From Deferribacterales bacterium (GTDB lineage Bacteria; Chrysiogenota; Deferribacteres; Deferribacterales; Geovibrionaceae): a DNA stretch of 14,325 nt. Below, piece after piece: positions 1 through 6,000 of this stretch. The DNA lies in NCBI GenBank assembly GCA_050253335.1, contig JBFWJG010000053.1, positions 1-14,325 of the forward strand. Reading direction: 5' to 3'. Position 1 is the first letter of the stretch, and each line of letters opens with the position of its first letter. A program made the position numbers.

Positions 1-3000
1 CCAACCTTAGATTGCACAATACAAGATATACGTTTAGTGGAGTAAAATCAACCCTAATATGCACAACAGAAACACTCGCGCGATTTTAATGCATTAATAT
101 CTTTCAACCTCTAAATGCAAATAGCCTATTAAAAAAGTGATTTGATGCAGTATATTTGCGCGGATATTCAAGGAGGGAGCTTATGGTGGAAGTTGCTGTT
201 GAGGGAAACAGTGTTCATATTAAAGGAAATATCAAAAGCATAGATGACTATCTCGCTGTGAAGAATTCTCTTCAGGAACTAGCGGACAAGGGAGTCCGCT
301 CCATTGAGGTCTGCTTCACTGATTCAGTATCAATTACCTCCTCTATCATCGGCTTTATGCTGAAGCTGATCAATGTCGACAAGATAGACCTCAGTGTGAC
401 CGCAGGGGACAAAAAGCTTCTGGCTCTTCTGGAAGAGCTTGAACTGCAGGGAATATTTAAAGTCCGCGGGCTGTAAATAAATCCTCTGCCTGCGGGCTTT
501 CTTAGCCTTAATTTATTGCCGTCATCCTGTTACGGTAGTATAATATTATCAGATATACCAATTTGAATTATCGACATGGCGTATTGCCGTAAGGCACTGG
601 AAGGATAAAATGAAAGATATATCTGTACTGATTGTTGAGGATGAACCGGCTGTGGCGGGGGCTCTTGAACTCAGGCTGAAGCGTACTTTCGGCAGGGTTT
701 TCAGCGCGTCCGATGGACGAAAGGGTCTGGAAACCGCAATTGCGGTGAAGCCCGATGTCATAGTTACTGATCTGCGAATGCCCCATATGGAGGGGCTGGA
801 GATGATAGAGGAGATCCGAAAATCTCTTCCTTATGTCCATGTGATAGTTCTCACCGCATCCAGCGACAGGTTTGACCGAAAAAAAGCCGAAGAGCTCGGT
901 GTAGAGGGGTATTTCACCAAACCCCTCATGGTGAATGAGCTTATCACTAAAATTCAGGAGCTGGTTTAGTATGAAAAGGGCGCAAGCGCTCTTTTTTGCC
1001 GTTATCCTCAGCGCATTTTCAGCGTTCGGCGCGCAGAAGGATTTCTTCACTGTTTCGGAATATATGCTCATGCACCCCGAACAGGCGTGGAAGTTTGACA
1101 GCTTCGTAAATATTGTCCGCAGTGCCCCTGTGCCTCTGAAAACAACAAACGCAAAACCGGCTAAAATAGCCGTTGTGTATCCCGCGGTTCAGGCGTCCGA
1201 TTACTGGCGGCGCAGTGTTAAGGTGCTGGAAAAGAGGCTTGCGGAACTTAATGTGAACTATACCCTGACAACCTATTTCAGCAGGCCGTCCGGAGATTCG
1301 AGGCTGCAGATGGCGCAGCTTGCGGAGGCCGCGGCGGGCGGAGCTGACTTTATCATAGTTTCGGCAGATTCATCACAGATGCGGAAGGCTGTCGGAAGGC
1401 TGCTTTTTGAGGGGAAACACGAAATTATCATACAGAACCTCACCACCCCGCTCAGAGAGTGGGAGCCTTCCCGTCCGCTTCTGTACACAGGGTTTGACCA
1501 TATAGCGGGCTCCGCCATGCTGGCGGACGCAGTTGCGGACACTGTTCCTCAGAACTCATCCTACGCTGTTCTCAACTGTTCCGGCGGAGAGGTGGGCTAT
1601 CTCAGAACCAAGGGCTTCACAGACCGCCTTGCCTCAAGGGGCAGATATGTCAGGAAGGCAGAATATATTACAGACTTTGACAGGGAAAAATCAAAGATAG
1701 CAGCAAAAGAGATTCTGAGGGTTCACCCTGACGTTTCCTTTATTTTCGCCTGCGCCACTGATGTGGCTCTCGGGGCGGCAGATGCCCTGCGGGAGGCCGG
1801 CGCGCAGAAGATAATCCTCAACGGATGGGGAGGCGGAAACGCTGAACTGGAGCTTATAAAACAAAAAGAGCTTGACCTTACTGTCATGCGTATGAATGAT
1901 GAAAGCAGTGTTGCTGCCGCGGAGGCTGTGAAGTTTGTTCTCTCCGGAAGGGCGAATGATGTGCCCGTTGTTTTCTCAGGGGATTTCAGCCTTGTTACCT
2001 CCGCCGACAGCGCAGACGAGATAAAAATGCTCAAAAAAAGGGCTTTCAGGTATTCGGGTGAAAATGAGCAGGATTAGATCTGTTAAAATATCCTCATTTC
2101 TGGCCATGCTTCTGGCGGGTTTTTCCGTCATTCTCTCTGTGGTTATTTTCATCTGGAGCAGTCTGGATGCCGGAAATCTCATAAAGCGCGAACAGACAAG
2201 GCTTCTGGAGAGGAACCACCACACAGCGTCCATGATTTTTGAAAAGGAACTGGAACAGCTGAACTGGGTCACAAGAGACCTGCGGGTAAGCCTCAGGCAG
2301 CTTCTTGTGAAAACCGCCGATCCTTCTTCGGATGAGTTCAAAAGCGGCTTTGAATCAATATACGATCTGAGCGTGGGTGAAAACGCCGATTTGATGATTT
2401 TTGTTTCTTACGACGAAAACAATGTCATTGACGCAGGCTCTCCCCTCTTTGATACATCAGGAATAATCAGTTTTCTTAAAAACAGCGGGCAGAGCGTCAC
2501 GGCCTCCGGCTCTGTGTACTCTGTTGAGACAGCGGGCGGAGCTGCCCCGCTTGCGGTCATTCTCGGCTATACGCAGGTGAACCACCCCGCAACGGGCGAG
2601 GTTCTGGGCAGGGTCTACACAGGCAGAATAATTAACGGCGCGCCGGATCTCATCAGGAAAACAGCGGCAGAAGCGGGCTCCGGCATAGCTTTCGTAGCGG
2701 GGGGAAGGGTTATCTCCTCCTCGGACAGGTTCAGCATGAGCGATTTTCTTCCTGAGGCCTGTGAAAGAGCCGGAGAAGCCTTGAAAGTCAGGGCAAGCTT
2801 CACTGCCTACTGCAGTCCTCTGGAGCTGAAAGGTTCTGCCATGCCTCTCATGATTTACCAGCTTACGGATAATCAGTCTCTGACACTCATGAAAAAGCAG
2901 ATAACAGCGAGAGCCGCCGCCGCGGTTATCCTTATTATAATCATGACAGCAATCTCTGTTTACTGGTTCCACCGGATTACAGCACGGTCTCTCATGTATC

Positions 3001-6000
3001 TTATCGACTATACCCACAGCATAAGCGCCTCCGGCAGCATTGACGGCTTCAGCCCCACCCCTGTTTATGAGTTCAACCGTCTGGGCGAGGCTGTTTCCGC
3101 AATGAACAGGGAACTGCGTGAAACACAGGCATATCTGGGCAATTTTCTGAGTTTCGCTAAAGTTCCGCTTATCGCGTGGGACACGGAAAACAGGATAGTT
3201 ATTTTCAACAAATCCATGGAAGAGCTCTCAGGAATTGAGGAGGCGCAGGCGGTCGGCCATAATCTCGAGATTATATTCTCATGCCTCACCGGAGACAGGC
3301 TCAAGGAGCTTCTGCTGAAGGCGGCCGGAAACGCGGACACCCTTTCCAACTTTGAATCCATGGTGAAGAATGTCAAAACAGGCGAAATGAAATATATCCT
3401 CTGGAATCTCTCCATGGCGGGAACAGGCGAAAAAAGCTTCGGGGTTGTTCTTCAGGGGATTGACATCACTGACAGGAAATCCTCGGAGGAGAAGCTTCTG
3501 CTTGCTTCCAAGGTTTTTGAAAATACCATAGAAGCCATTTATATAACCAACACAAGAGGGATTATCCTGAGTGTCAACAAGGCCTTCCTCCGGATTACAG
3601 GCTTCAGCGAGGAAGAGGCCATAGGCAATAAAACCAGCATTCTCCGTTCCGGCAGGCACGCAAATCACTTTTACAAGGGTCTGTGGAATTCCCTGAAGGA
3701 AACAGGCACATGGCAGGGTGAGATATGGAACAGGCGCAAAAACGGAGAGCTTTATCCGGCGCTTCTGAATATATCCAGCATAAGAGACTCAAACGGAAAT
3801 ATCTCCCATTTCATAGGCGTGATGCACGACATAACCGAAAGGAAAAAATACGAGGAACAGATCAAGTATCAGTCCCATTATGATCCGCTAACGAATCTGC
3901 CTAACCGCTATCTCTTTCAGGACAGGCTGAGCATGGCTATTTCCAGAGCGCGGAAAAACCATAATTATGTCGGGCTGATCTCCATCGATATAGACAGATT
4001 CAAAAACGTCAACGACACACTGGGGCATAATGTCGGGGATATACTGCTTCAGAAAATAGCCGACAGGATAGTGGGCACAGTGGGTGACAGCATCACGGTG
4101 AGCAGGCTTGGCGGGGATGAGTACACAGTCATAATTGAAGACCTTTCTGACAAGAACAGGGCAGTGACGGTGGCGTACAATGTCATTAAACAGCTTGAGA
4201 AGCCTTTTCAGGTGGATGATTACGAGCTTTTCCTTAAATGCAGCGCAGGGCTGAGCTTTTATCCGGATGACGGAGAAGATGTTTTCACCGTGGCCAAAAA
4301 CGCCGATGCCGCAATGTACCGTGCGAAGGCGAAGGGGCGCGGAATGCTCCAGATTTACACCACAGACTTTAACGACACCGCAAAAGACAGGCTCATTGTA
4401 GAAACCAAGCTTAACCGCGCGCTGGATAACGGCGAGTTTGAAGTTTACTATCAGCCTAAGATAAATCTCAAAACCCTTCAGATGACCGGGATGGAGGCGC
4501 TGATCCGCTGGAACAACCCCGATCTCGGCAGGGTTTTCCCTGATATGTTCATTCCCATCGCGGAGGAAACAGGGCTCATTGTTCCCATCGGTCACTGGGT
4601 TTTAAAGAGATCCTGCGAGGATCTCATGAGATGGCGCTCCAAGGGCTACGACCTCAAGGTGGCGGTGAACCTTTCCCTCAAGCAGTTTATCCAGAAGGAT
4701 CTCTACATGTCCGTGCGGAACGTTCTGCAGGAAACCGGAGTGAATCCTGAGCACCTTGAACTTGAGATTACCGAAAGCACAATCATGGTGGATACTGAAA
4801 ATACCCGGGATATTCTGGATAAGCTCAGCTCACTGGGAATATCTTTCGCTATCGATGACTTCGGCACAGGGTTCAGTTCCATTGGTTATCTGACAAGAAT
4901 ACCCATAGATACCATAAAGATAGACAAAACTTTCACTCAAGGGATAGACAGCAGTGAGGACTCGCTTTCCATAGTTCGCTCGGTTATTCAGCTTTCCAGA
5001 AACCTGAACATCGAGGTTGTTGCCGAAGGGGTGGAGAATGAGGTTCATCTTAGACTGCTCCGTGAGATGGAGTGTGATCTGGCGCAGGGTTATTATTTCA
5101 GCAGGCCTGTTCCGGCGGGAGAGTTCGAAAAGCTTCTTGAAGGCTGGAGTGAAAACTTTTCCCTTGAGATCAACAGCTTAAAAAAGGCTTAGAGCTTTGA
5201 TGGGCCGGCCATGCCGAACCCTTGAGTGGTTCTGATGCCTATGCCTGATTCCACAAGAAGGGAAAGATCCTCCGGATGACCGCTGAGCTGAAATGTTCCT
5301 GTTATTCCGGTGAGCATCATGAGAGATTTTCCCGTTTTTTCCCTGAATTTGTCCAGTGTGTGCTTGATTACGGTCTTGCGCAGCTTAACAGGCCTGAACA
5401 CTATGGGCTCCAGCGGGTATTTTCCCGTCATGCCGAAAATGCGCATGGAGGAGATTTCCGCAAGCCTGTCCGAGTATTCCTTTTCGGAAACCTCCAGTTC
5501 ACAGTATCCGTCCTCCACGGGGGGGATGATAGGCTTCTTCGAGTTCTGAGCTTCAAGAAGGACAGGCGAGTGCGTATGAAGGGTGACTTCCGGAGCTTCA
5601 ATGGCAAAAGGCCTGTTGAGAAGCTTTGAGTTCTCAAGCATATAAGTAAGCTTTTTGCCTCCCACCAGAATCTGCCCGTTTCGGGAAAAATCTATATCCT
5701 TCTTTCTCTCAAACCCTTCCTGCACTGCAAGAAGAAATTTCTCATACGGACTTGAAATGTATAATGTGACAAACTTGTTCTCGGGGATATAAAAAACAGT
5801 ATCGTGAACTTCAAAGCTGTTGTCGAAGACGATGGCTTCTTTCCTGAATTTGTCTCTGGAGAAGGCGAGATTGAACGTGAAGAATTTGAAGCTTTTATCA
5901 GTAAGCCCCATATTCAGTGATTCATAGCCGCTTTCAGCGGCTGATTTGATGATTTCGGCTATTCTGTTTCTGAAAATGACCGGTACTTCTGTTGCGGTAA

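Follow-up and report, generated by a model that had tools for sequence, protein, structure and literature searches.

What could a Vibrio-type AI-2 receptor do in a bacterium in which the usual AI-2 synthase, LuxS, was not found, and what would it control? The question is raised by a stretch of 14,325 nucleotides from a Deferribacterales bacterium (contig JBFWJG010000053.1; the window), in which luxP overlaps a gene for a putative c-di-GMP enzyme (Table 1). With moderate confidence, we regard the two genes as encoding an AI-2 receptor made of two proteins and acting on c-di-GMP, the ligand, the complex and the regulation being inferred. The basis of this reading is the orthology of LuxP, its pocket, the sensor family, the domain order, the intact motifs, the coupling of the genes and the fact that no LuxS was found.

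Table 1. Features of the luxP locus in the window
Feature	Position	Strand	Evidence
Candidate sigma-70-like promoter (TTGCCG-17-TATAAT) ahead of the receiver, luxP and sensor genes	516..544	+	Consensus match only, 10/12
Stand-alone response-regulator receiver, 119 aa	610..969	+	Pfam Response_reg, E 5.8e-26
luxP orthologue, 368 aa	971..2077	+	ATG 971 to stop 2077; phmmer against solved LuxP
Predicted 1042-aa membrane protein: TM, LuxQ-type dCache sensor, TM, HAMP-like linker, PAS, PAS, GGDEF, EAL	2064..5192	+	Pfam, NCBIfam, profile, hydropathy
LuxQ-type double-Cache sensor in the periplasm, about aa 33-280, flanked by two hydrophobic stretches	2160..2903	+	Profile, model, hydropathy
HAMP-like linker and first PAS (about aa 305-480)	2976..3503	+	NCBIfam LuxQ_Vibrio and DibA alignments
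Second PAS domain (aa 483-599)	3510..3860	+	TIGR00229 and Pfam PAS
GGDEF domain (aa 604-759)	3873..4340	+	Pfam, E 1.3e-43
EAL domain (aa 782-1015)	4407..5108	+	Pfam, E 1.7e-75

The luxP product was compared with solved structures by phmmer. Four LuxP chains matched aa 27-363 at E 1.8e-89 to 2.3e-89, against 1.4e-10 for the next best family, ribose-binding protein, which ruled out that a ribose- or LsrB-type binding protein had been wrongly annotated. The product is 41% identical to a Vibrio LuxP, falls into the Pfam family Peripla_BP_4 and has, by inspection, a signal-peptide-like stretch at its N terminus. Seven residues hydrogen-bond AI-2 in 1JX6, namely Q77, S79, W82, N159, R215, T266, and R310 (PMC9687752). 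At an offset of 3, they correspond to Q74, S76, W79, N156, R212, T263, and R307 in the window. D267 and W289, which we take to be further AI-2-contacting residues, have the counterparts D264 and W286, and all nine pocket positions are thus present. They are invariant across 37 aligned sequences and complete in 207 of 210 LuxP-clade sequences, partly by construction, as 80 metagenome loci within the 210 were found with patterns holding Q, S, W, and R. The preliminary description had reported the same match (E 2e-89) and an aligned, invariant pocket, and both were reproduced. A sister clade linked to ABC transporters keeps just six or seven of the nine positions in five of five proteins (two or three differ), which makes the complete set a hallmark of the LuxP clade. 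The window gene is encoded with a LuxQ-type sensor and not with an ABC transporter, none of which adjoins luxP in the window, and LsrK and LsrG had no match in the host genome. The gene is a luxP orthologue with all AI-2 hydrogen-bonding residues, and its product is predicted from these residues to bind AI-2. A literature search turned up neither binding nor activity measurements for a LuxP from outside Vibrio.

The partner gene starts at ATG 2064 (GTG 2058 is also possible) and overlaps luxP by 14 bp; the overlap and the order LuxQ-periplasm, PAS, PAS, GGDEF, EAL are as first described. Pfam LuxQ-periplasm matched the protein at E 4.6e-5 with 23.5 bits, below the 25.7 cut-off, and with 27.7 bits, above it, in a second search. 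V. cholerae LuxQ was again the sole PDB match of the N terminus (E 3.6e-4). The likeness had been called remote, a view that no longer stands, as a sensor profile without Vibrio-type rows (A4) matched LuxQ chains only in the PDB, at E 2.1e-30, 8.5e-24, and 1.2e-20. A first structural model, whose 44-row alignment included 9 rows of Vibrio-type LuxQ that could have drawn it towards LuxQ, ranked LuxQ top, and in a repeat with 30 rows and Vibrio-type LuxQ removed, LuxQ still came first. For the model predicted from A4, LuxQ 3c38 led with Z 16.4 (rmsd 2.9, 210 aligned residues), and the best non-LuxQ structure had Z 14.5. The dCache_1 receptors rpHK1S-Z16 (Z 10.7) and PctA (Z 13.1) share the overall fold. 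Sensor identity to LuxQ is 13-17%; the assignment to LuxQ is firm. Pfam dCache_1 was not listed for the sensor at E 0.05, unlike the direct AI-2 receptors of that family, such as PctA, KinD, and rpHK1S-Z16.

Beyond the sensor, NCBIfam LuxQ_Vibrio (NF041947) aligns aa 9-479 of the partner to LuxQ 5-459 at E 1e-30, with a score of 106 bits against a cut-off of 1200. The best NCBIfam match is the model of the phosphodiesterase DibA, a PAS-GGDEF-EAL protein that the cytoplasmic part resembles (657 bits from aa 466, below the 980 cut-off). The LuxQ-like part therefore likely ends at about aa 305-480, where the fusion junction would lie. Pfam HAMP did not match the window partner, although it is present in the relatives L035, P0129, P0130, and P0135. 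The GGDEF domain has D642, K647, N650, D659, and GGDEY at 683-687, with GDSI in place of the RxxD inhibitory site. The EAL domain has EALIR at 811, N869, E901, DDFGTG at 931, K952, E988, and Q1008. The metal and substrate motifs of both domains are present (DIDRFKNVNDTLGHNVGD and GGDEY; EALIR, VNLS, ELEITE, DDFGTG, IKID, EGVE, and QG). Residue roles were assigned from PleD for GGDEF and from RocR-type enzymes for EAL. Both catalytic motif sets are intact and enzyme activity is predicted, although motifs do not prove activity. Pfam listed GGDEF and EAL in the partner and no kinase domain (HisKA, HATPase or receiver), which ruled out a kinase. The host genome has 11 Hpt matches; the partner itself has no phosphoryl donor.

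LuxP was found again in 11 of 68 genomes of the phylum, as earlier counted. These 11 genomes are also the ones with a strong match to the sensor (E 2e-31 or better), each directly behind luxP, and no match in the remaining 57 surpasses 1.9e-6; 8 of the 11 sensors were themselves in the search profile. The host genome has one luxP and one strong LuxQ-type sensor. Genome contigs searched with a single protein gave one locus only. The preliminary description had found a GGDEF partner in seven of eight loci; GGDEF-EAL partners do dominate, but the figures are superseded by 10 of 11 loci, the window included, and one hybrid kinase. Both genes are whole and overlapping in all four genomes of the genus and in L016, and LuxP and sensor are 67-77% identical within the genus. 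In genus g2 the pair is broken in two of four genomes, by a DDE transposase between the genes and by an in-frame TAA in the partner, and three of four partners have SGDEF; genus g4 lacks the pair in seven of seven genomes. In L020 the sensor is fused to GGDEF-EAL without any PAS, and the receiver is missing in 6 of 11 loci, so sensor and GGDEF-EAL form the constant core. Because luxP and sensor co-occur strictly and adjoin each other, they likely form a working pair, and the genomics supports a putative LuxP-sensor complex.

The fusion is not confined to this family and also occurs in Neptuniibacter, Zobellella, and Marinobacterium (Gammaproteobacteria) and in Stappia (Alphaproteobacteria). 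Elsewhere the same LuxQ-type sensor is joined to chemoreceptor and PP2C-type phosphatase outputs. Among the rows listed for metagenome loci, 62 of 71 genes behind luxP show Pfam LuxQ-periplasm; 6 of 80 such loci have room behind luxP and yet contain no sensor (orphan luxP). As to a single or repeated origin of the fusion, trees of 44 sensors and of 42 LuxP proteins each need three output changes, of which the starred branches force only one, and a single GGDEF clade was not rejected by the AU test (p 0.059). Between clades the GGDEF-EAL parts share 35-48% identity, and with four further GGDEF-EAL proteins encoded by the host the figure is 22-35%, values compatible with either origin. We consider it an evenly balanced proposition that LuxP and the LuxQ sensor are a portable receptor of borated AI-2 that has been combined with four or more kinds of output (GGDEF-EAL enzymes, histidine kinases, PP2C-type phosphatases, and chemoreceptors), and that its form in marine Gamma- and Alphaproteobacteria and in this phylum's anaerobes, which lack luxS, constitutes an undescribed class of AI-2 receptor that switches c-di-GMP turnover directly via LuxPQ symmetry-breaking, without phosphorelay.

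LuxS had been reported as absent from 16 Geovibrionaceae genomes, which holds and extends to 0 of 68 across the phylum (the search control matched in 5 of 14). SahH and Pfs were both not found in the host genome. Being phylum-wide, the lack is no distinguishing mark of luxP carriers. Eavesdropping on other species, as suggested in the preliminary description, fits the anatomy, the pocket and the LuxS absence, although the idea for luxS-negative luxP carriers dates from 2008 (PMC2561040). With a Vibrio-type AI-2 receptor, a c-di-GMP enzyme and no usual AI-2 synthase, the host probably uses the AI-2 of its neighbours to choose between sticking and moving.

In the proposed mechanism, periplasmic LuxP would be docked onto the membrane protein's LuxQ-type sensor, and borated AI-2 (S-THMF-borate) from other species would close LuxP. 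Closure would rearrange the two sensor domains of a dimer, as in Vibrio LuxPQ, for which a symmetric-to-asymmetric switch has been described (PMC8050422). The shift would travel via the membrane helices, the HAMP-like linker and the PAS domains to the GGDEF-EAL pair, and the balance of c-di-GMP synthesis and breakdown would move without phosphorelay. A direct conversion of AI-2 into c-di-GMP had been proposed, which implies synthesis. As both motif sets are intact and the DibA phosphodiesterase model is the best NCBIfam match, AI-2 may lower c-di-GMP. Our guess, tipped only slightly this way, is that AI-2 would break a dimer symmetry that the cyclase needs, so that c-di-GMP would fall and cells in crowded communities would disperse or retain their motility.

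The nearest precedent is LuxP-LuxQ of V. harveyi/campbellii and V. cholerae (PDB 1JX6, 1ZHH, 2HJ9, 3C38; NF041947). It shares the full AI-2 pocket, the luxP gene before and overlapping its partner, the LuxQ-type dCache sensor with two membrane helices around it, the linker and the first PAS. Unlike in Vibrio, PAS-GGDEF-EAL replaces HisKA-HATPase-receiver, and LuxS was not found in the phylum. NspS-MbaA (V. cholerae) and ScrB-ScrC (V. parahaemolyticus) also combine a binding-protein gene with an adjacent dCache-like membrane GGDEF-EAL enzyme that it controls (PMC8050422 Table 1); here, the arrangement is known from the genes. Their binding proteins belong to SBP_bac_8 and SBP_bac_3, neither listed by Pfam for the window LuxP at E 0.05, and their ligands are polyamines or the S-signal, in contrast to the Peripla_BP_4 LuxP and LuxQ-family sensor of the window. 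By analogy, the pair would work like these systems but is not one of them. AI-2 also alters c-di-GMP via the dCache_1 cyclase rpHK1S-Z16 (PMC7584622), GAPES1 cyclases (PMC12834153) and AsrK-AsrR (PMC11796354). These receptors bind AI-2 in their own sensor domain without LuxP, and AsrK prefers boron-poor conditions and signals by phosphorelay.

Several parts of the system have been encountered before. Rezzonico and Duffy 2008 (PMC2561040) found luxP homologues next to a PAS-bearing gene in luxS-negative Neptuniibacter MED92, Marinomonas MED121, Desulfuromonas, and Desulfovibrio. The partner was termed a 'presumed transcriptional regulator', and 'GGDEF' and 'diguanylate' do not occur in the main text (PMC2561040). 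As the LuxQ-sensor/GGDEF-EAL protein of three other Neptuniibacter strains carries the accession next to LuxP, MED92_04779 may be the same fusion. In the Cache survey by Upadhyay 2016 (PMC4822843 Table 1), 112 of 115 LuxQ-periplasm proteins are kinases and one is a c-di-GMP enzyme. The passages and 12 of the 18 supplementary files examined neither name nor discuss that enzyme, nor link it to LuxP or AI-2 (PMC4822843). A description of a LuxP-GGDEF-EAL pair was not found in our literature search.

The points counted against an AI-2/c-di-GMP system are the low LuxQ identity, the orphan luxP genes, the broken g2 and absent g4 pairs, SGDEF, sister proteins in sugar clusters, and relatives in compost, as borate is possibly scarce outside seawater. 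A functional pair might instead recognise a look-alike, a borate complex either of another small sugar or of DPD formed without LuxS, possibly self-made, and would then be a metabolite or borate sensor rather than an eavesdropper. Sister-clade proteins do keep S, W, R, T, W, and R of the pocket, although they are encoded in sugar ABC clusters that include PdxA-like and dehydratase genes; three are in sugar-uptake clusters in which no lsr gene is listed. Two LuxS-independent AI-2 routes have been proposed (Zhang 2020, PMC7584622), and luxS is absent from the phylum whether luxP is present or not. We nevertheless consider this reading unlikely, given the near-complete conservation of the nine positions in the LuxP clade (partly by construction) and their divergence in all five sister proteins. 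Moreover, the only sister protein with an informative neighbourhood, a distant LuxP relative from Roseicitreum, adjoins LsrK, a genuine AI-2 kinase by its score of 784 bits against a cut-off of 528, and LsrR-like and LsrG-like genes.

A lower probability still is given to an enzyme set mainly by intracellular inputs (two PAS domains and the receiver) or working one way, with LuxP binding AI-2 and the sensor but AI-2 being at most a weak modifier. The PAS domains before the catalytic pair, the DibA-like cytoplasmic part and the receiver gene that abuts luxP in 5 of 11 loci would fit such control, but the L020 fusion does without PAS and the other six loci without the receiver. Least probable is an uncoupled or decaying pair, in which the sensor reads its ligand alone, like the dCache_1 receptors, or the locus is a relic. 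The g2 interruptions, the g4 absence, the orphan luxP genes and direct AI-2 binding by other dCache domains point that way. Both genes are, however, whole, overlapping and conserved within the genus, every strong sensor match in the 68 genomes is accompanied by luxP, and the sensor lacks the dCache_1 match at E 0.05.

If the preferred AI-2/c-di-GMP reading is true, a LuxP-gated GGDEF-EAL enzyme would be an added receptor class for borated AI-2, and AI-2 listening would extend to compost, landfill and sediment communities, to anaerobes there that apparently cannot make AI-2. LuxP is still described as Vibrio-only in recent literature (PMC7584622). Recent papers describe LuxQ as a kinase. The surprise is limited because each half has been published: luxP carriers that lack luxS in 2008, and also GGDEF-EAL enzymes gated by binding proteins and cyclases that respond to AI-2. 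As a two-gene, phosphorelay-free system with a simple read-out, the pair could test whether the asymmetric LuxPQ tetramer mechanism drives a non-kinase output, and it could also be used as a compact sensor with AI-2 as input and c-di-GMP as output.

The receiver stop codon lies 1 base upstream of the luxP start, and the receiver is probably on the same transcript; a similar ORF has the same place in three same-genus loci and in L016. Sigma-70-like sites such as the candidate promoter number 18 in positions 1-6600, against 8.2 +/- 2.6 in shuffles. No convincing terminator ends the luxP-sensor pair, and no Rfam family was found in the window. In one study, contigs from two compost libraries labelled as RNA extend over the receiver and luxP (a single piece spans 402-1844), which is no proof of transcription, as opposite-strand cas6 is also covered and the libraries may hold DNA. 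An assembly artefact was rejected, since overlapping pieces from one run, possibly the source, span the stretch, two further studies have runs with pieces about 95% alike, and three other genomes of the genus have the same gene order. Four of 20 matching runs entered this comparison. Close relatives of the stretch come from compost and marine sediment.

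The luxP gene and the gene behind it form a real, conserved and coherent locus. Identification of the first gene as luxP, made in the preliminary description, is borne out by matches to four LuxP chains of known structure (E about 2e-89), the next family following at 1.4e-10; the closest named relative is a Geovibrio thiophilus protein (77% identity). In structure 1JX6, seven residues hydrogen-bond AI-2 (PMC9687752). Their counterparts in the window LuxP are Q74, S76, W79, N156, R212, T263, and R307. D264 and W286 correspond to D267 and W289, which we take to be further LuxP pocket residues. 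All nine positions are invariant among 37 aligned homologues; the AI-2 pocket is kept, as had been claimed. The full pocket is present in 207 of 210 homologues, a figure that is partly so by construction since 80 of the 210 came from a scan with patterns holding Q, S, W, and R.

Features of the window and of related loci
Feature	Position	Strand	Remark
97-aa protein	183-476	+	upstream of receiver gene
Lone receiver gene	610-969	+	upstream of luxP
luxP	971-2077	+	between receiver gene and partner
Partner, 1042 aa	2064-5192	+	14-base overlap with luxP
LuxQ-periplasm	partner aa 38-274		Pfam, E 4.6e-5
GGDEF domain	partner aa 604-759		Pfam
EAL domain	partner aa 782-1015		Pfam
cas6	5189-6019	-	convergent with sensor gene, 4-base overlap at its end
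Trypsin-like protease-like gene	11388-12344	+	by inspection
Subtilisin-like protease-like gene	12548-14323	-	by inspection
Disrupted genus g2 loci	L018:6058-7458; L019:6483-9494		DDE transposase; in-frame stop
365-aa protein, genus g2	L017:4349-5446; L018:8604-9701; L019:4169-5266; L021:8672-9769		directly upstream of luxP
LuxP-like operon, Roseicitreum antarcticum plasmid pRA01	L105:238-10134		pocket E-S-W-N-R-T-A-W-R
Other sister-clade proteins	L104:5842-6996; L109:7911-9050; L110:7887-9026; L111:7001-7990		pocket D-S-W-A-R-T-A-W-R

A Pfam scan of the partner also finds two PAS stretches and no kinase domain. In NCBIfam, residues 9-479 align to Vibrio LuxQ 5-459 (E 1e-30) and residues 466-1021 to the PAS-GGDEF-EAL protein DibA (657 bits, below the model cut-off), so the protein looks like a LuxQ front half joined past its PAS to a c-di-GMP module. 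Judging from sequence, the GGDEF and EAL catalytic motifs are both in place, their residues presumably having the roles we assign to them; motif inspection of the GGDEF domain finds no RxxD site. The LuxQ likeness, previously called remote, is closer than that. A single-sequence search with the sensor matched LuxQ alone (E 3.6e-4), and a 30-row profile built without Vibrio-type rows matched three sequences up to E 0.1, all of them LuxQ (E 2.1e-30 to 1.2e-20). When a model predicted from the 30-row alignment (pLDDT 82.5) was compared with 48,161 chains, LuxQ ranked first (Z 16.4, rmsd 2.9, 210 aligned), against a best Z of 14.5 for other dCache domains. Profile and predicted fold argue firmly for a sensor of the LuxQ type.

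Within the phylum, luxP is present in 11 of 68 genomes, as stated earlier. Strong sensor matches are confined to the same 11 genomes, every one directly behind luxP, and the best match in the remaining 57 reaches only 1.9e-6, with a profile that contained eight of the 11 sensors. A GGDEF partner, already proposed as the rule, occurs in ten of the 11 loci as GGDEF-EAL; the other partner is a hybrid kinase. GGDEF matches occur in 26 frames of the source genome, which holds a single luxP and a single LuxQ-type sensor. Two genus g2 loci are disrupted: in one genome luxP is separated from its partner by a DDE transposase, and in another the partner's sensor domain is interrupted by an in-frame stop. 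The three g2 partners without that stop carry SGDEF. All four g2 genomes have the 365-aa protein, which gave no Pfam match in the single copy scanned. Genus g4 lacks luxP in seven of seven genomes.

Beyond the phylum, the best 80 of 262 metagenome matches, which may include duplicates, were kept. An ORF lies behind luxP in 71 of these loci, comprising 50 kinases, six GGDEF-EAL proteins, 13 sensors without an output seen, and two unrelated proteins; Pfam LuxQ-periplasm occurs in 62 of the 71, among the matches listed. Six of the 80 loci have room behind luxP yet are sensor-free, and five stop at a contig edge. Of the sensor-less loci L050, L053, L067, L074, and L095, four have a 180-aa gene directly upstream and oppositely oriented downstream genes. 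A profile search of cluster representatives matched 1073 proteins, the best 150 of which comprise 108 kinases, 16 GGDEF-EAL and two GGDEF-only proteins, two chemoreceptors, two SpoIIE/PP2C phosphatases, and 20 proteins with no output seen, shares that are biased because 13 of the 44 query rows were GGDEF proteins. The LuxQ-periplasm fusions P0129, P0130, P0135, and P0170 carry a chemoreceptor signalling domain (two) or a SpoIIE/PP2C phosphatase (two). Among 13 GGDEF-EAL representatives checked for names, out of 18 with GGDEF, the fusion was found in four named clusters: Neptuniibacter, Zobellella maritima, Stappia stellulata, and Marinobacterium sedimentorum. Enzyme and LuxP carry consecutive accession numbers in three strains of Neptuniibacter. 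The fusion may have had a single origin or several.

LuxS is absent from all 68 phylum genomes (control positive in five of 14), which extends an absence earlier reported for the family. Searches of the source genome (99.9% complete) gave no match to SahH, Pfs, LsrK, or LsrG; an MTA phosphorylase and a futalosine hydrolase-like protein were the sole matches in the SahH/Pfs search. Most likely, LuxP would sit docked on the LuxQ-type sensor and bind borated AI-2 from neighbouring species, and binding would rearrange the sensor dimer, by analogy with Vibrio LuxPQ (PMC8050422). The shift would then most likely pass via the membrane helices, linker, and PAS domains to the GGDEF-EAL pair. Diguanylate cyclase activity requires two aligned GGDEF half-sites, and for this reason we lean slightly towards AI-2 lowering c-di-GMP, contrary to the earlier wording that AI-2 is turned directly into c-di-GMP. 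The analogy is with Vibrio, in which ligand brings asymmetry and the kinase is switched off (PMC8050422, PMC12834153).

The ligand itself has to be weighed against a sister clade. A plasmid search returned more distant LuxP relatives (28-30% identity), and the four readable in annotated records all lie in ABC-transporter clusters. The Roseicitreum antarcticum relative adjoins a bona fide LsrK (784 bits against a cut-off of 528) together with genes resembling LsrR and LsrG; the other three lie amid sugar-uptake genes, with no lsr gene among the genes listed. The wider LuxP family is thereby linked to AI-2 once. Five of five sister proteins retain the pocket residues S, W, R, T, W, and R, with two or three other positions changed, so the pocket is partly common to LuxP and probable sugar binders. 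On balance, AI-2 is quite probably the natural ligand of the window LuxP. On pRA01, the LuxP-like protein (30% identity) stands in LsrB's place in an ABC operon with LsrK, LsrR-like, LsrG-like, RbsD/FucU, and aldolase genes. This operon may serve to import borated AI-2, and it hints at where LuxP came from. The other pocket variant occurs in Ruegeria, Phaeobacter, and Tateyamaria, where the gene lies in a double ABC cluster, in two cases close to PdxA-like genes; strains of Vibrio sp. THAF have the variant as their second copy.

In the literature, luxP is described in four bacteria that lack luxS (Neptuniibacter, Marinomonas, Desulfuromonas, and Desulfovibrio), with PAS-bearing neighbours in three of the four and eavesdropping proposed; the main text names no partner as GGDEF or cyclase (Rezzonico and Duffy 2008, PMC2561040). 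One c-di-GMP enzyme is counted among 115 LuxQ-periplasm proteins (Upadhyay 2016, PMC4822843, Table 1); 12 of the 18 supplementary files were covered and the rest might name it. AI-2 acts on c-di-GMP via rpHK1S-Z16 (PMC7584622), GAPES1 proteins (PMC12834153), and AsrK-AsrR (PMC11796354). Sulfate reducers have genes annotated as LuxP (PMC9659907). In a preprint on cold seeps, luxP, luxQ, and GGDEF are each mentioned, apart from one another (10.1101/2024.11.15.623595). Working analogues are NspS-MbaA and ScrB-ScrC (PMC8050422); the receptor half is of the LuxP/LuxQ type and the wiring follows NspS-MbaA. No description of a LuxP-gated GGDEF-EAL enzyme was found by full-text searches, which covered mainly literature outside subscription journals. 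The combination appears undescribed and, from the sequences, appears to span at least two phyla.

Elsewhere in the window, the 97-aa protein, kept upstream of the receiver across the genus, has no Pfam or NCBIfam match; in the atlas it resembles unnamed clusters (0.95-0.97) and, as a lead only, STAS proteins (0.89). The lone cas6 occupies the same position in three same-genus loci, and Pfam and NCBIfam recognised no further cas gene in the window. Both convergent, secreted protease-like genes encode a C-terminal glycine-rich GGGGC stretch followed by a hydrophobic helix and basic residues, resembling a C-terminal sorting signal.
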